Assembly: GCA_964510015.1 (NCBI GenBank)
Contig: CAZEAA010000002.1
Location: forward strand, 427 to 64,426
Direction: 5' to 3'
Length of the DNA stretch: 64,000 nt
DNA from: an uncultured Sandaracinaceae bacterium
GTDB taxonomy: Bacteria; Myxococcota_A; Polyangia; Polyangiales; Houyiibacteriaceae
How positions within the stretch are numbered: position 1 is the first letter of the stretch; each line of letters starts with the position of its first letter. This document shows, piece by piece, positions 15,013 through 23,253 of the stretch. The position numbers and the translations under genes are program-made. The notes below the pieces were generated by a model. The model was not told the origin of the DNA. It searched no databases and saw only the letters and a list, made by a program, of their open reading frames with translations.

Positions 15013-16422
15013 ATGAAGACGCGAAACGCTTCTGTGCGTAATTTCAGCCTGCGCGACCACCTGATGGGCTTGGTGGCCCTCGCCCCCCTCGCCGCGTTCG
15101 CGGTTGGCTGCGGGGGTAGCAGCGACACGTTCGAGACCAACAACTGTAGCGACTTCGACTCGGCCAACTGCGTGGAGATCGAGGGCGGCGACGCGGCCGC
15201 GCTGCTCACCGCCGTCAACACGCTCGAAGACGACACCACGGTCATCCTCGGGCCTGGCACCTTCGTGTTCACCAACCAGGTGACCATCCGCGCCAACGGC
15301 ATCAACTTCGTGGGGCAAGGCATCGAGGAGACCACGCTCTCGTTCACCGACGCGGCGGCGCAGTCCAACGGCGTGGACGCGGTGGGCGACGACTTCCTCA
15401 TCCAGGACCTCACCGTGCTGGACGCCAAGAAGGATGGCATCCGCGTCGAGAACAGCGCGGGCGTCACCTTCCGCCGCATCCGGGCGACGTGGACCAGCCC
15501 GGGCCTGTCGAGCAACGGGGCGTACGGCATCTACCCCGTCCACAGCAGCGAGGTCCTCGTGGAGGACAGCTTCGCGTACAACGCGTCGGACGCCGGCCTC
15601 TACGTGGGCCAGTGCCGCAACGTGGTGGTGCGCCGCAACGAGGTCCGCGGAAACGTCGCCGGACTCGAGATCGAGAACACTCAGTACGCGGACGTCTACG
15701 AGAACCACGCCGAAGACAACACCGGCGGCATCGTGGTCTTCGACCTCCCGGGCAACCCCGTCGTGGGTCGCGACGTGCACCTCCACGACAACACCATCAT
15801 TCGCAACAACCGTCGCAACTTCGCGCCGGGTGGCACCGTGGCGCAGATCCCGCCGGGCACCGGCACGTTCGTGATGGCCTCGCGGCGGGTCGTGATCAGC
15901 GACAACCGCTACGAAGAGAACAACGCCGTGGACATCGCGATCATCAGCGGCCTGATCCTCGAGGAGAACCCGCCGGAAGATTGGGAGCTGGACCCCGCGG
16001 TGCTGGAGGACATCGACGACCTCGGCCTGCTCCCCGGCCCCGTCAGGACGGACTACGTGACCAACTATCGCACGGAGAACATCGTCATCTCGGGCAACAT
16101 GCACATCAACCCCGGCTCCTCGTACACGCTCACGCTGCTCTTCGGCCAGCTGCTGGCGGTGCTCTACGGAGACGAGCCGTCGGACTCGGTGCTCTACGAC
16201 ACCATCGGTGAGTCCATGTTCGATGCCGAGGTGGCCGCGAACAACTCGAACGACAACCACATCTGCGTCGGTGGCAACACCAACGGCAGCTTCGCCAGCT
16301 TCGACGCCCCCAACCAGCCCGGCGGCCCGTTCCTGCAGATCGACGCGGCCCCGTTCGCGCCGTTCGACTGCACCACGCTGGCCGGTGGCGAGCTCGAAGT
16401 CTGGAACCCCGAAGCCCCATGA
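15013..16422 (+). CDS. Parallel beta-helix repeat lipoprotein (TIGR03805-like)
   Basis: Track ORF 14920..16422. The start is ATG 15013 (MKTRN...LAAFAVGC lipobox). The protein shows repeated beta-helix turns (VENSAGVTFRRI, VEDSFAYNASDAGLYV, VRRNEVRGNVAGLEIEN, VYENHAEDNTGGIVVF). Confidence 0.7.
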   Translation: MKTRNASVRNFSLRDHLMGLVALAPLAAFAVGCGGSSDTFETNNCSDFDSANCVEIEGGDAAALLTAVNTLEDDTTVILGPGTFVFTNQVTIRANGINFVGQGIEETTLSFTDAAAQSNGVDAVGDDFLIQDLTVLDAKKDGIRVENSAGVTFRRIRATWTSPGLSSNGAYGIYPVHSSEVLVEDSFAYNASDAGLYVGQCRNVVVRRNEVRGNVAGLEIENTQYADVYENHAEDNTGGIVVFDLPGNPVVGRDVHLHDNTIIRNNRRNFAPGGTVAQIPPGTGTFVMASRRVVISDNRYEENNAVDIAIISGLILEENPPEDWELDPAVLEDIDDLGLLPGPVRTDYVTNYRTENIVISGNMHINPGSSYTLTLLFGQLLAVLYGDEPSDSVLYDTIGESMFDAEVAANNSNDNHICVGGNTNGSFASFDAPNQPGGPFLQIDAAPFAPFDCTTLAGGELEVWNPEAP

Positions 16423-17600
16423 GTCAGCGCGGACTTCGCTCTTTTCGAGGGCGGGAAGTATGTGCGGTGCTCGGCCTGGTGACGCTGCTGGGCATCGCCG
16501 GCTGCGGCGGCGACTCGTCGGGCGGCTTCGACGACTCTCGGCCGCCGCGTGTCTCGCTGACTGGGGCCACGCCAGAACGCCTCTCGGACTACAACCTGCT
16601 CGCCTACGACGGCGACGGTCAGTTTCGCTACAACACGCGCGTTGTCCCCTATGACCTGAACACGCCGCTCTTCAGCGACTACGCACTGAAGGACCGCGCC
16701 ATCTACGTTCCAGAGGGCAGCAGCGCCACCTACACCGACACCGGCGTGTTGGAGTTCCCCGTGGGCACCGTCCTGATCAAGAGCTTCTCCGTGGCCGCCG
16801 ATCTGCGCAGCCCGGACGAGAACCGCACACTGGTCGAGACGCGCTTGCTGATCCACTTCGAGGATGGCTGGCGCGCGTTCCCCTACATCTGGAACGAAGC
16901 GCAGACCGAGGCGTTCTTCAGCCCGGCAGGTGAAGTTCGACCCATCTCCTTCATCGACGCCGAAGGCGAGGAGCAGGTCGCCAACTACCTGTTCCCGCAG
17001 CGCAACCAGTGCCAGTCGTGCCACGAGCGTCGCGATGACGACGGCACCACGCGCATCGTTCCGGTGGGTCCGAAGGCGCGCAACCTGAACCGTGACTACG
17101 ACTACGGTGCGGGGGTGGGAACCGTAAACCAGCTCACGCGGCTGGCGGACACGGGGCTCCTCACGGGCCTTCCAAGCCTGTCGGAAGTCGACGCCGCTTT
17201 CGACTTTGCGGTCATCGAAGCGGATGGCGTGGCGAGCCTCGGCAGCGCCGACCTCGATGAGGCTGCGCGCACCTACCTGGACGTCAACTGCGCGCACTGC
17301 CACAACCCCAACGGGGTGCAGGGCATCACCTCGCAGCTCTTCCTGAACTACGAGAGCGAAGACCTCTTTCGCCTCGGTTACTGCAAGCGGCCGGGTAGCG
17401 CCGGTTCTGGCACGGGCGGGCACACCTACGACATCGTGCCAGGGAACCCCGACGAGTCGATCTTGGTATTCCGGGTGGAGACCGAGGAAGCGGGGGCCAT
17501 GATGCCGCTGCTGGGGCGGTCGCTCCAACACCGCAGGGGTGCAGAGCTGCTGCGTGCCTGGGTGGCTGACATGCCAGCCCAGGACTGCAGCGCACCGTAG
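16419..17600 (+). CDS. Diheme c-type cytochrome, SO_2930/HNE_0200 family-like (TIGR03806-like)
   Basis: Track ORF, 393 aa with an ATGA overlap with the upstream gene. It has two CxxCH motifs (CQSCH, CAHCH) and the lipobox LLGIAGC. This family is known to pair with TIGR03805 beta-helix proteins. Confidence 0.7.
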   Translation: MSQRGLRSFRGREVCAVLGLVTLLGIAGCGGDSSGGFDDSRPPRVSLTGATPERLSDYNLLAYDGDGQFRYNTRVVPYDLNTPLFSDYALKDRAIYVPEGSSATYTDTGVLEFPVGTVLIKSFSVAADLRSPDENRTLVETRLLIHFEDGWRAFPYIWNEAQTEAFFSPAGEVRPISFIDAEGEEQVANYLFPQRNQCQSCHERRDDDGTTRIVPVGPKARNLNRDYDYGAGVGTVNQLTRLADTGLLTGLPSLSEVDAAFDFAVIEADGVASLGSADLDEAARTYLDVNCAHCHNPNGVQGITSQLFLNYESEDLFRLGYCKRPGSAGSGTGGHTYDIVPGNPDESILVFRVETEEAGAMMPLLGRSLQHRRGAELLRAWVADMPAQDCSAP

Positions 17601-18880: not shown

Positions 18881-19471
18881 TCAGCCCACGGGGGCCGGCA
18901 CCGGCGGCTGACGGAACACGGACGACCGGTAGTAACGCAGCTCCTCGATGCTCTCGAGGATGTCGTCGATGGCGCGGTGGTTGCCGCGCTTGGGCGGACG
19001 CTTGCTGTAATCCTCGGGGAACCAGCGCTGTGTCAGCTCCTTCACCGTGGACACGTCGATCATGCGGTAGTGCAGGTAGGTGTCCACCGTGGGCATGTAG
19101 AGCGCGATGAAGCGCCGGTCCTGATGGATGGAGTTGCCGGCCAGCGGCGCGCTGCGCGGATGGCAGTGCGCCTGCAAGAACGCGAGCACCTGCGCCTCGG
19201 CGTCCGCCTCCGTGACGGTGGACTCGCGCACGCGGTCGATGAGCCCGCTCTGCCCGTGGTGCTTCTTGTTCCAGTCGTCCATCGCGGCGAGGCGCTCTTC
19301 GGGCTGGTGCACCACGAGGTTGGGCCCCTCGGCCACCACGTTGAGCTCTCCGTCCGTGATCAGCACCGCGATCTCGATGATCCGCTCGCGCTCGGGGACC
19401 AGTCCGGTCATCTCGAGGTCAGCCCACACGATTCGTGCCGACCGGGGGTCTTGCTGCTCTGTCGCCGCCAT
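18881..19471 (-). CDS. orn: Oligoribonuclease
   Basis: Track ORF, 196 aa. DEDDh exonuclease motifs are present: WADLEMTGL, AGNSIHQDRRF and HRAIDDILESIEELRYY. Confidence 0.9.
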   Translation of the reverse strand: MAATEQQDPRSARIVWADLEMTGLVPERERIIEIAVLITDGELNVVAEGPNLVVHQPEERLAAMDDWNKKHHGQSGLIDRVRESTVTEADAEAQVLAFLQAHCHPRSAPLAGNSIHQDRRFIALYMPTVDTYLHYRMIDVSTVKELTQRWFPEDYSKRPPKRGNHRAIDDILESIEELRYYRSSVFRQPPVPAPVG

Positions 19472-19545: not shown

Positions 19546-19845
19546 TCAGAACTGCTCTTGGGCCGGGCCGGTGAGGTCGCTGCAGTCCTGTACGCTGCAG
19601 TCGCGCTCGTCGCTGGGGCCAGTGAGGTCGCTGCAGTCCTGTACGCTGCAGTCGCGCTCGTCGCTGGGGCCAGTGAGGTCGCTGCAATCCTCCACGCTGC
19701 AGTCGCGCTCGTCGGCCGGGCCCGAGCTCTCTTCGTCAGCCACGGTGTCGCCCGTGCCCGCGCTCGCTCCGCCGCAGCCGAGGGCGCTTCCGGGGATCGA
19801 CAGGGCCATCGCTGCGGCCACGAACAACTCTCGATTGATCTTCAT
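19546..19845 (-). CDS. Small Cys-rich tandem-repeat lipoprotein (99 aa)
   Basis: Track ORF. The signal is MKINRELFVAAAMALSIPGSALGC. The mature part carries 3x DERDCSV(Q/E)DCSDLTGP(S). Confidence 0.6.
   Translation of the reverse strand: MKINRELFVAAAMALSIPGSALGCGGASAGTGDTVADEESSGPADERDCSVEDCSDLTGPSDERDCSVQDCSDLTGPSDERDCSVQDCSDLTGPAQEQF
19571..19723. repeat. 51-bp tandem repeat x3 (units 19571-19621 and 19622-19672 identical; third unit diverged)
   Basis: Read directly: gtgaggtcgctgcagtcctgtacgctgcagtcgcgctcgtcgctggggcca occurs twice, 51/51 identical. Each unit contains an internal 9-bp repeat gctgcagtc. Confidence 0.95.
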
Positions 19846-19905
19846 GCTGTGCTTCCTGTGCTTCCTGGTGAGTGGAGTGCTTACTGCGAAGAGTCGGGGG
19901 CTCGC

Positions 19906-20484
19906 TCAGCGCGCGGGGACGGGCGGACGGAACAACGCGCCCAGATCGAAGTCCACCGCGTCGAAGGGCTCGGGCCGGCAGACGGCGCCGTCGTCGTCCG
20001 TGAACGCGCCGAGGCGCACCCAGCGTGCGCTCTCGTTGCGAAAGACCTCGAGCACCCGCAGGTCGACGTCCACGAGCCAGAGGTGCTTCACACCGACCTC
20101 GGCGTAGGCGTCCATCTTCACGCCGCGGTCGCGCTTGGCCGTGGCGGGTGAGAGCAGCTCGCACACCCAGTCGGGAGCGAGCGTGAAGAACGCCGTCTCG
20201 GGCAGCTCGGGCATGCGCTCCACGCGCCAGCCGGCGATGTCGGGCACGAGCACGTGGCTGCCGAGATGGACCTCGGGTTCGTGGATGATCCACCACCCGC
20301 CAGGGCCTCCGATGCCGCGGCGGAACGGGCCGCTCAGCAGCGCGCCCAGCTCGGACGCGGCGCTGACGTGCCGCGGACGCGGCTGCGGCTGGGTCTCGAG
20401 CGCCCCGAAGATGATCTCGCCCGTCACCCCTTCGGGGAGCGCCAAGATGTCGTCGTAGGTCGCGTGCTTGCGGGCGGCGGTCAT
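19906..20484 (-). CDS. Uma2-family (DUF820) putative endonuclease
   Basis: Track ORF, 192 aa. The layout YDDILALPEG...EII...PDIAGW...APDWVCELLSP...DRGVKMDAYAEVGVKHLWLVD is typical of Uma2 PD-(D/E)xK proteins. Confidence 0.7.
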   Translation of the reverse strand: MTAARKHATYDDILALPEGVTGEIIFGALETQPQPRPRHVSAASELGALLSGPFRRGIGGPGGWWIIHEPEVHLGSHVLVPDIAGWRVERMPELPETAFFTLAPDWVCELLSPATAKRDRGVKMDAYAEVGVKHLWLVDVDLRVLEVFRNESARWVRLGAFTDDDGAVCRPEPFDAVDFDLGALFRPPVPAR

Positions 20485-21743
20485 CGGAGAGGGCAGGGTA
20501 GCATGCGTGCCGCTCGGACGGCTTCTCGCGCGACTTCGCGGTCGGAGAACGCGACCGGACCCGTGGCGAGGAGCTGCTGTGCTTCGTGCCCGCGCCCGGC
20601 GACGACCACGCAGTCGGTCGCGGCTGCGCGCGCGACGGCGTGGTGGATGGCCGCGCGGCGGTCGGCTTCACGGTGCCACACGGCGCGCCGGGACGCGGCA
20701 CACCCGCTCTCGATGGCGTCGAGGATGCGCTCGGGGTCTTCGCTGCGCGGGTTGTCGTTGGTGAGCACGACCACGTCGGCGTGCTGGTCCGCGACGCGGC
20801 CCATCTCGGGGCGCTTGCTCGGGTCCTTGTCGCCGCCGCAGCCGAACACACACCACAGCTGCCCGCGCGGGCTCGTGAGGAGGCCGCGCGCCTCGACCAG
20901 CGTGCGGGCGAGCGCATCGGGAGTGTGCGCGTAGTCCACCACCACGAGCGGCTGCTCCGACACCACGTCGAAGCGTCCGGGGACGCCCGCGAACGAGCGC
21001 AGGCCCTGCCGAATGGCGTCCGGATGGTAGCCGAGGAAGGCCGTGGCGAGCGCCGCGCCGAGGGCGTTCTGCACGTGCACGGCCCCGACCGCGCGCAGCT
21101 CGTAGCGGCCCGCGAGCGCTTCGAAGCCGTGACCCCCAGACACCTCGAAGCGGGTCCCAGAGACCGACGCCTGCACCCGGTGCGCCCGCAGCTGGAGCGG
21201 CAGCGATGCGCAGTCCGCATGCACCCCGCCCACCACGTAGCCCAGCCGGCGCACACCGGCCGGCACCACCTCGTCGAGCAACGCGCTGCACGGGTCGGCG
21301 AGGTTCAAGACCACCGCGCCGCTCGCGGGGATGGTCATGAACAGCTGTGCCTTGGCGGCCAGGTAGGCCTCGGGCGACCCGTGCACGTCCAGGTGGTCGT
21401 GCGTGAGGTTGGTGAACACGCCCACGTCGGCGGGCCAGTGCTGCGCGAAGCCGGCGGCGAGGGCCTTCGAGGTGGTCTCGACGGCCAGGGTGCGCACGCC
21501 CCGCCCGATGGCGCTCAGCAGCAACTCCCGGAACGCGACCATGCTCACGTCGGCGGAGAGCTGTTGCTCACCCACCCAGGTGCCGAGCGTGGTCGCGCGC
21601 GCCGAGGTCTCGTCTGCCGCAGCCACGATGGCCGCCACCATGCTCGTCGTCGTGGTCTTGCCGTTCGTGCCGGTGACTCCCACCGAGCGAAGCTGCGGTC
21701 GCAGGAGCCCGAGCGGGGATGTGGATGCGAGCGAAGTGTCCAT
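20481..21743 (-). CDS. MurE-like Mur ligase lacking the N-terminal UDP-binding domain
   Basis: Track ORF, 420 aa. The P-loop GVTGTNGKTTTT starts at residue 22, versus roughly residue 110 in E. coli MurE. MurE-type motifs are present: FTNLTHDHLDVHG, DYAHTPDAL, FGCGGDKDPSKRP and DNPRSEDP. There is a 4-bp overlap with the Uma2 gene. Confidence 0.75.
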   Translation of the reverse strand: MDTSLASTSPLGLLRPQLRSVGVTGTNGKTTTTSMVAAIVAAADETSARATTLGTWVGEQQLSADVSMVAFRELLLSAIGRGVRTLAVETTSKALAAGFAQHWPADVGVFTNLTHDHLDVHGSPEAYLAAKAQLFMTIPASGAVVLNLADPCSALLDEVVPAGVRRLGYVVGGVHADCASLPLQLRAHRVQASVSGTRFEVSGGHGFEALAGRYELRAVGAVHVQNALGAALATAFLGYHPDAIRQGLRSFAGVPGRFDVVSEQPLVVVDYAHTPDALARTLVEARGLLTSPRGQLWCVFGCGGDKDPSKRPEMGRVADQHADVVVLTNDNPRSEDPERILDAIESGCAASRRAVWHREADRRAAIHHAVARAAATDCVVVAGRGHEAQQLLATGPVAFSDREVAREAVRAARMLPCPLR

Positions 21744-21803
21744 GGTGGCACGCGAGCGTGGAAGCAGCGTGCCACAAGACGACGGTCGCGCGTGGGCTCC
21801 CGC

Positions 21804-23063
21804 CTACTCCGCGGCGGCGATGGTCATGGCGGAGCGCGCGTGGGACTCGCGACGGATCCCGAGCACGACCGTGTGCAGCCAGCCGAAGCTCACCACGATC
21901 AACGCGAACATCACCCAGAAGCAGGCCTCTGGGCGACCGGTGGCGGACTCGAGGTACCCGAAGCCCAGCGGCATGAAGAAACCGCCGAGCGCGCCGAGCG
22001 TGCCCACCAGACCACCGACCAGGCCGACGTCCTTCGCGTAGTACTCCGGGATGTACTTGTAGACGGAGGCCTTGCCGATGCCCATGCCCACCCCGAGCGC
22101 CAACACGCAGCCGGTGAACACGGTCAGGCTGGTGCCCGGGAGCATCAACGGCACGCACGCGATCAGTATGGCGATGAAGACGCCGTAGGTGACGGGGCGG
22201 GGGCCGAAGCGATCGGACCAGTAGCCGCCCAGCGGACGCAGCAAGCTCGCCGGGAAGATGAAGAGCGCCGTCAGCAGCGCGGCGGTGGGCAGGGGCAGCT
22301 CGTACACGTCGGTGTAGTACGTGGGGAGGCGGAGCGAGAACGCGACGTAGGCGCCGAAGACCACCACGTAGTAGAGGCCGAAGCGCCACACGCGCACCTC
22401 GCGCAGCGGCGTCATCATGGAAGCGAGCGAGCGCGTCGCCCCCGGCGTGCGGTCGGGCGTCGGCGAGAGGAACCACACCAGCGCCGCCATCACGATGAGC
22501 ATCGCCGTGTACATCACTGGCACGAAGCGGTAGCCACCCGGAATGGCACTACCGAGGAGGCCGGCCGCCGGGACCAGGGTGATGAGCGTGGGTGCGATCA
22601 GCTTGGTGACCGACGCCCCGACGTTGCCCGCGCCGAACGTGCCGAGAGCGACCCCTTGCTTCTCGCGCGGCTGCCACGCAGCGTTCCACGCGATACCGAC
22701 GGAGAACGTGTTGCCCGCGATGCCGAACGCGAGCGCGCAGAACATGACCTCCCAGTACGAGCCCGCGAGGCTCAGCAGGTAGCAGGGGACGGCGGTCACC
22801 AAGAGCAGCCCCGTCATCATCGCGCGGCCGCCGTAGCGGTCGGTCAGCATGCCGAAGGGCAACCGGAAGATGGAGCCGCTGAGCACCGCGATGGCGGTGA
22901 TCCACGTCACTTGGAGCCTCGAGAGGCCCAGCGCTTCGCGCATGGGAACCGCGAGCACGCCGAGCATCAGCCAGACGGCGAAGCACAGCGTGAACGCGGC
23001 GGTGGACAGGATCAGCACCCGAGAGGCAGCTGACTCGGACTCCGAGCGGGGTTGCGACGTCAT
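21804..23063 (-). CDS. narK: MFS transporter, NarK/NasA nitrate/nitrite porter-like
   Basis: Track ORF 21804..23231. The start is ATG 23063 (MTSQPRSE...). It has 12 predicted TM segments, and GTFGAGNVGASV and FGMLTDRYGGR resemble the NNP family. Confidence 0.65.
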   Translation of the reverse strand: MTSQPRSESESAASRVLILSTAAFTLCFAVWLMLGVLAVPMREALGLSRLQVTWITAIAVLSGSIFRLPFGMLTDRYGGRAMMTGLLLVTAVPCYLLSLAGSYWEVMFCALAFGIAGNTFSVGIAWNAAWQPREKQGVALGTFGAGNVGASVTKLIAPTLITLVPAAGLLGSAIPGGYRFVPVMYTAMLIVMAALVWFLSPTPDRTPGATRSLASMMTPLREVRVWRFGLYYVVVFGAYVAFSLRLPTYYTDVYELPLPTAALLTALFIFPASLLRPLGGYWSDRFGPRPVTYGVFIAILIACVPLMLPGTSLTVFTGCVLALGVGMGIGKASVYKYIPEYYAKDVGLVGGLVGTLGALGGFFMPLGFGYLESATGRPEACFWVMFALIVVSFGWLHTVVLGIRRESHARSAMTIAAAE

Positions 23064-23253
23064 GGACGAAACGCTGACCGCCGTACGTTTCGTGGCGTGA
23101 ACGCCCTTGTAAATTGGAGGTTTCGGACTCCTCGAGGCGTGACCCTCGAATGTTTCCGGATGATGGCAAGACGGAACGCACAACGGCGGGGCGCCCTCCT
23201 GGGACGCCTCCGCCGATGTGACGCGAGCCATCGCCGCCGGGGCGGCGCGTCGC

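Follow-up and report, generated by a model that had tools for sequence, protein, structure and literature searches.

A family of MurE-like ligases without the UDP-binding domain in Polyangia-type Myxococcota

The 64-kb stretch of DNA analyzed here (the window; contig CAZEAA010000002.1 of an uncultured Sandaracinaceae bacterium, positions 427 to 64,426) encodes a 420-aa MurE-like ligase that consists of Mur ligase domains 2 and 3 only (20481..21743; identified by ORF call, Pfam and NCBIfam). This gene, short murE, and its features lie on the minus strand. Sequence comparison places the short MurE in a conserved family of single origin, the named members of which are all Polyangia and all members of which lack domain 1. 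In MurE, domain 1 carries the uridine site and a diphosphate loop and domain 2 provides most of the substrate pocket (PMC3829189). Judging from alignment with canonical MurE proteins, the nucleotide grip is lost and the acceptor pocket rebuilt, and the sites for ATP and meso-diaminopimelate (meso-DAP) are left alone. We tentatively propose that the short MurE functions as a stem-peptide ligase that adds DAP without reading the uridine, probably in cooperation with MurF.

Domain architecture of the short MurE

An HMM scan for Mur_ligase N, M and C, suggested by a sequence-only reading of this DNA that had described the protein as a MurE-like ligase without its UDP-binding domain, agrees with that description. 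The only Pfam domains in the 420-aa protein are Mur_ligase_M (PF08245, residues 23-233; 108.9 bits) and Mur_ligase_C (PF02875, residues 256-385; 113.4 bits), with no match to the Mur ligase N domain PF01225. The NCBIfam murE model TIGR01085 passes its cutoff (326.8 vs. 257.3 bits), and its alignment covers model positions 85-471 of 472, indicating that approximately 85-90 N-terminal residues are absent. Every NCBIfam MurE equivalog model scores below cutoff (for example, NF001124: 320 vs. 476; NF001126: 304 vs. 373). The P-loop, GVTGTNGKT, occupies residues 22-30 (21654..21680, minus strand), so that just 21 residues precede it; its start at residue 22 had been read correctly from the sequence.

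The missing domain is not hidden upstream. The ORF for a major facilitator superfamily (MFS) transporter ends at 21804, and the spacer between its stop and the murE ATG is exactly 60 bp (21744..21803), the distance given in the sequence-only reading. An in-frame stop 20 codons 5' of the ATG (read in locus L097, which has an identical sequence) rules out a longer protein. When two MurE N-domains were used as tblastn queries, no match was found anywhere in the 64-kb window or in any frame of the related metagenome loci; the claim that domain 1 is not encoded in another frame therefore stands. The P-loop is preceded by an in-frame stop at a distance of less than 85 codons in approximately 37 independent loci (of 80 from metagenomes), which cannot encode domain 1. 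Some relatives have long open frames upstream, but these were rejected as Arg/Pro/Ala-rich out-of-frame translation of high-GC DNA and not a protein domain. A separate nearby gene for domain 1 was also rejected, both because of the blank tblastn search and because neighbour clustering recovers no recurrent small neighbour except a lipoprotein gene (discussed below). Wrong start calls are common in high-GC genomes and, together with the long upstream frames, could suggest that the N-terminal domain was lost to a frameshift or a misplaced start during assembly or gene calling. Given the stops and the unmatched N-domain, and because a 100%-identical protein is found in contigs from six independent sequencing runs, such an artefact has next to no probability and is excluded as the cause of the domain 1 absence.

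Distribution and origin of the family

The short architecture is widespread. In a search of 5.8 billion proteins, of which the best 120 matches were considered, nearly all matches are 355-452 aa in length with just two domains. Two proteins are longer: P0026, a MurF fusion that is truncated, and P0050, which reads through into the downstream lipoprotein gene. All organism names on the matches are Polyangia-type Myxococcota (Sandaracinaceae, Polyangiaceae, "Myxococcales" and Minicystis rosea), the closest named matches being Sandaracinaceae (68-72% identity). An exhaustive HMMER pass over 1.84 billion representatives, of which the best 150 were considered, returned approximately 38 full-length short representatives at the 50% identity level. 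The nearest canonical MurEs rank after these short forms (44-48% identity), a level that is ordinary for a between-phyla comparison. More than 120 clusters at 90% identity share the short architecture, and the family-specific peptide YLAAKAQL led to the 80 metagenome loci mentioned above. Public annotation labels the short proteins as plain MurE.

In a neighbor-joining tree (358 columns), the short and fused forms make up one clade in 72 of 100 bootstraps. The tree does not single out a sister group of this clade and is compatible with vertical descent as well as with transfer. When P0189, the nearest canonical Myxococcota MurE, was used as a query, the matches were a small Myxococcota group and then mixed phyla; none of these matches is labelled Polyangia, and most are nameless.

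A missing domain and a position outside the division and cell wall (dcw) cluster might be expected of a decaying, truncated murE remnant, one of the options raised by the sequence-only reading. This option is contradicted by the more than 120 clusters and approximately 38 full-length representatives of the same architecture, by invariant catalytic, ATP and DAP columns, by a very confident structure model and by the absence of frameshifts and internal stops in short murE. A pseudogene is thus highly improbable and decay is excluded. The short form is a trait of the whole family and is under purifying selection.

Active site and acceptor pocket

The AlphaFold2 model of the 420-aa protein has a pLDDT of 95.6 and a pTM of 0.93. 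Its best PDB matches are MurE structures (TMq 0.82-0.86), and it superposes on closed, ligand-bound forms. For a residue comparison, 196 canonical MurEs from many phyla were set against 116 short and 33 divergent short members. The P-loop, E89, D116/H117/H121, K131, R311, DNPR and GxGHE are invariant across 82-348 sequences, with T24-K29 of the P-loop invariant in 82. K131 (21351..21353, minus strand), the alignment partner of the carbamylated lysine of MurE (E. coli K224), lies in an invariant column within the family signature PE.YLAAKAQLF. Three MurE signatures picked out by the sequence-only reading, DYAHTPDAL (residues 270-278), FGCGGDKDPSKRP (residues 300-312) and DNPR (residues 330-333), are all invariant alignment columns.

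DNPR and a glutamate bind meso-DAP in MurE (PMC3829189). The residues of this site are kept as invariant columns in the short family: D330-N331-P332-R333 (20745..20756, minus strand; a meso-DAP-binding site by homology), R311 (the equivalent of Arg389) and E387 (the equivalent of Glu468).

The differences from canonical MurE are few and concentrated. Of the positions conserved in 90% or more of canonical MurE proteins, the short family has lost only nine (PDB numbering), and most of these fall in the linker or in known acceptor-contact segments. A proline in the linker between domains 1 and 2 is lost and Gly141 is replaced by Thr. Three of the nine positions make up the Thr157-Thr158-Pro loop, whose two threonines are present in 194-195 of the 196 canonical proteins and absent from the short ones. 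Ser184 is replaced by Thr; His186 by Lys, Arg or Gln (Lys or Arg in 90 of 116 short members); Arg192 by Phe, Leu, Val or Ile (Arg in 195/196 canonical and 0/116 short proteins); and Asn307 by His, Gln or Phe. In the window protein, the remodelled acceptor-pocket segment, defined by alignment against canonical MurE, spans residues 65-104 (21432..21551, minus strand). It has S67-M68-V69 in place of the TTP loop, ETTSK (E89-K93) in place of EVSSH, and G98-F99 where canonical MurE has G-R (E. coli Arg192), followed by the family-specific W103-P104.

In the Mycobacterium tuberculosis (Mtb) MurE, Thr195, Thr196, Ser222 and Arg230 are described as key substrate contacts, and an isophthalic-acid group that mimics D-Glu docks to the same four residues (PMC6736417, PMC3133487, PMC10058398). 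An offset of 38, estimated from the two carbamylated lysines, would convert Mtb to E. coli numbering and equate these four residues with Thr157, Thr158, Ser184 and Arg192. The Lys or Arg at the His186 position may compensate for the change of Arg192 to Phe: since a positive charge is back at this position in 90 of the 116 members, a carboxylate may still bind there.

MurF-short MurE fusions

In two subfamilies of the short clade, and outside dcw clusters, short MurE is fused to MurF. In P0154 (909 aa) and P0167 (877 aa; five near-identical members), one polypeptide chain combines a full-length MurF with a short MurE C-terminal to it, and truncated versions of this fusion are seen in P0155, P0186, P0026, L101 and L122. 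The fusion loci (L012:10001-12730, L013, L014, L101 and L122) have fabH-like and ABC1 kinase genes as neighbours. The MurF half matches TIGR01143 over positions 4-416 (296 vs. cutoff 288.6), a coverage that indicates that it keeps its own N-terminal domain, and approximately 115 residues precede its own P-loop. The window protein is not fused, having 21 residues before its P-loop and an MFS gene upstream.

A stand-alone divergent MurF is encoded in a Labilithrix sp. metagenome-assembled genome (L017:10001-11269; JBGAFW010000042.1). It is 43% identical to the MurF half of P0154 and approximately 30% identical to canonical MurF, and no mur or dcw gene lies within 10 kb of it, which suggests that mur genes are dispersed in Polyangia. 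This locus was the only one of interest in a scan of genome contigs with the MurF halves (two near-universal peptides), the other 79 of the 80 listed loci being unrelated canonical MurF. A search with the MurF-like fragment of P0026 gave weak fragmentary matches only and reached no Polyangia dcw clusters.

Genomic neighbourhood and the lipoprotein partner

Canonical murE typically, although not obligatorily, lies between ftsI and murF in the dcw cluster. P0189 is located in a textbook dcw cluster, and L016 shows the canonical Myxococcota arrangement. No dcw genes (ftsI, murF-mraY-murD, ftsW, murG, murC, murB or ddl) lie near short murE in any of 85 related loci, and none are present in the window, in keeping with the earlier statement that this is not a dcw locus. 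In the window, ORF calls show four genes head to tail on the minus strand, encoding the MFS transporter, the short MurE, a Uma2 protein and a lipoprotein.

The sole recurrent neighbour of short murE, by neighbour clustering, is a small lipoprotein gene. Its products begin with M-K-I-D-R-x-x-F-L, followed by a lipobox Cys and a variable, repeat-rich tail. Of the 43 occurrences of the MKIDRxxFL motif in the 812 kb surveyed, 42 (in 42 loci) have a short murE no more than 1.2 kb away. Three arrangements are found: the gene may share the strand of short murE and lie either upstream or downstream of it (in the downstream case often with an ATGA overlap), or it lies downstream in convergent orientation. 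The family is present in the window, L001, L002, L009, L010, L012 and L099-L177. At the N-terminus, codons vary synonymously and I-D-R/L-x-x-F-L is kept, indicating constraint on the protein. This N-terminus is matched by no Pfam or NCBIfam model; its RxxFL core is similar to a Tat signal but in most cases has no twin arginine.

The window member of this family is a 99-aa protein (19546..19845, minus strand; ORF and motif) with the N-terminus MKINRELFVAAAMALSIPGSALGC and three Cys-rich repeats. The tails of other members carry ECVGWTPTGEC repeats, WXXGXW repeats or LDL-receptor class A repeats in place of the Cys-rich 17-residue repeats of the window. Within the window gene there is a 51-bp tandem repeat (19565-19714; 2.9 copies, 95% matches) that encodes GPSDERDCSV(E/Q)DCSDLT. 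In P0050 (526 aa), the gene call runs from a short MurE into MKIDREKFL lipoprotein sequence, so that the two are adjacent in yet another lineage; this may be either a real fusion or the product of a missed stop or frameshift.

The Uma2 gene

The gene directly downstream of short murE in the window encodes a 192-aa Uma2 protein of the PD-(D/E)xK type (19906..20484, minus strand). It has the conserved domain PF05685 (73.6 bits vs. cutoff 27), a PD...E-L-L-S-P motif is seen by eye, and it matches the PADLOC candidate defence family PDC-S03 (E-value: 1.2e-15). It is present in a single copy in the window. As the sequence-only reading noted, its start codon and the murE stop overlap over 4 bp (ATGA). 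A spacer of 60 bp separates it from the lipoprotein ORF.

Comparison with relatives shows that Uma2 is a recent, unrelated insertion that split murE from its conserved lipoprotein partner. The window is colinear with L099 (75% nucleotide identity) save for a block of approximately 650 bp that holds Uma2 (19866..20516, minus strand; limits approximate). This lineage-specific block is absent from L177, L002 and L099, in which the lipoprotein gene directly follows murE (77%, 69% and 71% protein identity, respectively), in L177 and L099 with an ATGA overlap of its own. The insert also supplies the 3' end of the window gene: the ancestral ending ...QQKEDTA* (approximately 7 codons) is replaced by ...RAARMLPCPLR* (the last 11 codons). 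Directly 5' of the lipoprotein ATG (window positions approximately 19846-19870), there are two tandem copies of AGGAAGCAC. This sequence is similar to the ancestral 3' end of murE as found in L099 (AAGGAAGACACAGC ATGA) and may be a scar or duplication at the insert junction.

The 4-bp overlap had led to the proposal that the MurE and Uma2 proteins form a functional, translationally coupled module, and the arrangement does recur in the contigs from six sequencing runs. The ligase in those contigs is 100% identical to that of the window, and Uma2 lies downstream of short murE in no other locus examined, including the relatives with 77% and 71% identity. The insert is thus present only in the species of the window, it broke an existing murE-lipoprotein overlap, and the Uma2 protein matches a family of stand-alone candidate defence proteins. 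A functional tie between the two is very improbable, and this part of the sequence-only reading is not upheld.

Other genes of the locus

The MFS transporter gene (21804..23231, minus strand; Pfam and NCBIfam) lies upstream of short murE. The sequence-only reading called it narK-like. Its assignment to the MFS holds (Pfam MFS_1), but the NarK model TIGR00886 reaches only 218 bits against a cutoff of 311.7. It is not a conserved neighbour, since another gene is found upstream in L177, L001, L002, L009 and L010. Directly downstream of the lipoprotein gene is a gene for an RNase_T-family exonuclease (18881-19471, minus strand; PF00929, 113 bits; oligoribonuclease-like). Farther along, on the plus strand, a 393-aa ORF (16419-17600) combines two CxxCH motifs (CQSCH and CAHCH) with a lipoprotein-like signal (LLGIAGCGG); it possibly encodes a di-haem c-type cytochrome lipoprotein. 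A promoter and terminator scan of the locus gave nothing informative.

Comparison with known systems

The short MurE shares with canonical MurE the fold of domains 2 and 3, the P-loop, the Mg/catalytic residues, the carbamylated-lysine position, DNPR and the DAP-site glutamate, with an identity of 35-48% and a TIGR01085 score above the cutoff. It differs in lacking domain 1 with its uridine site, in the loss of the TTP loop and in the replacements at Arg192 (Phe), His186 (Lys/Arg), Ser184 (Thr) and Asn307 (His). It also falls below the NCBIfam equivalog cutoffs, and its gene is not part of a dcw cluster and has a lipoprotein gene as its partner.

Like the short MurE, the MurT subunit of the GatD/MurT lipid II amidotransferase is a naturally occurring Mur ligase with no N-terminal UDP-binding domain and with a short flexible N-terminus. 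MurT acts on lipid II and not on a UDP substrate (PMC6113224). It amidates D-Glu, works with a GatD partner and is marked by a DNAAD motif and a DUF1727-type C-terminal domain. In contrast, the C-terminal domain of the short MurE is an ordinary Mur_ligase_C that contains DNPR, and the sequence of the protein is far closer to MurE. No glutamine-amidotransferase family turned up in the Pfam lists of called genes or in neighbour clustering, although no search was aimed at gatD.

The top PDB sequence match of the short MurE is the MurE-MurF chimera of Bordetella pertussis (PDB 8F5D; 213 bits). Such chimeras resemble the fused relatives of the window protein in joining two consecutive stem-peptide ligases in one polypeptide. 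In the known chimeras a complete MurE precedes MurF, whereas in the short MurE relatives MurF comes first and MurE lacks domain 1. The survey of Mur chimeras that accompanies the B. pertussis structure makes no mention of the MurF-then-MurE order (PMC10214165). Mpl and other recycling ligases are likewise Mur-family enzymes that are encoded outside dcw and act on stem-peptide material. Mpl, however, is MurC-like and keeps the UDP-binding N-domain, and the short MurE matches its model TIGR01081 with only 39.7 bits against a cutoff of 388.7. FolC, the M domain of cyanophycin synthetase and CapB also have a middle and a C-terminal domain and none for UDP binding, and use acceptors that are not nucleotide-linked, but they match with at most 111 bits, lack DNPR and have other amino-acid substrates. 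No description of a domain-1-less MurE, of the MurF-MurE chimera order or of the lipoprotein partner was found in the literature searched.

Proposed function

Our working model of the short MurE runs as follows. The protein would be an active, ATP-dependent ligase that adds meso-DAP to the peptidoglycan stem peptide, acting before MurF. Its family has lost domain 1 and rebuilt the acceptor pocket: the TTP loop is gone, and a positive charge at the position of His186 has taken over from Arg192. The precursor would enter the short MurE with its MurNAc-L-Ala-D-Glu end, and its UDP end would probably be held by a cooperating MurF, which is fused to the ligase in some relatives and separate here. 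The short MurE is most likely the MurE of its own lineage, and presumably the only one. This tentative assignment is supported by the TIGR01085 match, by the confident model on closed MurE structures and by the intact ATP, catalytic and DAP sites. It fits because of the MurF fusions, the ordinary evolutionary rate, the unchanged DAP site and the dispersed mur genes. The N-domain kept by the MurF half also implies a UDP-linked pathway. Further points in favour are the single origin of the family, the small number of lost conserved positions, the possible compensation at His186, the stand-alone MurF of Labilithrix and the location of most of the substrate pocket in domain 2, domain 1 providing no more than the uridine site (PMC3829189).

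Several points weigh against this model. Arg192 and the TTP loop are the binding contacts for the D-Glu moiety (PMC6736417, PMC3133487), and a family that changed its acceptor would be expected to lose such residues, found in 195 of 196 canonical proteins, along with domain 1. Lipid II is the substrate of MurT, the known example of a Mur ligase that has no N-domain (PMC6113224). Short murE is in a dcw cluster at none of the 85 loci, and its conserved neighbour encodes an exported lipoprotein and not a Mur protein. These same observations favour a different explanation, namely that a canonical murE is located elsewhere in the genome and the short MurE is a specialized paralogue. Such a paralogue would add meso-DAP to a non-nucleotide acceptor (a lipid-linked or free muropeptide, or another carboxylate) and have a role in the envelope tied to the MKIDRxxFL lipoprotein. 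The loss of domain 1, the replacement of the D-Glu and acceptor contacts (TTP loop, Arg192, His186 and Asn307) and the tight lipoprotein linkage across three gene arrangements would all be accounted for. A non-UDP acceptor had already been suggested in the sequence-only reading, and the replacement of near-invariant acceptor contacts strengthens that idea. Against it stands the full-length MurF to which relatives are fused, which has its own N-terminal domain and so points to a UDP-linked pathway. DAP recognition is moreover unchanged, the lipoprotein is exported and the ligase is cytoplasmic, and no Polyangia-labelled canonical MurE is found among the nearest canonical homologues, although this last is a weak point. 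A specialized paralogue is therefore a serious but doubtful alternative. Its most specific form, in which the short MurE and the MKIDRxxFL lipoprotein would make up a Polyangia-specific two-gene envelope module that places meso-DAP on a lipid-linked or peptide acceptor with no nucleotide handle, by analogy with MurT on lipid II, is rather unlikely.

Implications

MurE is an essential and heavily studied antibiotic target, and its plan of three domains and its contacts to the acceptor are regarded as universal. The short family is a clade-wide exception to this textbook picture. If the short form is the working MurE of Polyangia, uridine recognition and the Arg192/TTP clamp would be dispensable, and the MurF-first fusions would point to two ligases that share one grip on the substrate, with consequences for models of Mur-ligase complexes and for the design of uracil-pocket inhibitors. 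If it is instead a paralogue, it would catalyze a so far undescribed type of DAP addition to a non-nucleotide acceptor, and this reaction would be tied to a new family of lipoproteins in bacteria noted for their complex envelopes and for natural products. Should the two-gene module exist, Polyangia would have a stem-peptide or DAP-tagging route apart from the classical UDP pathway and linked to exported repeat lipoproteins.

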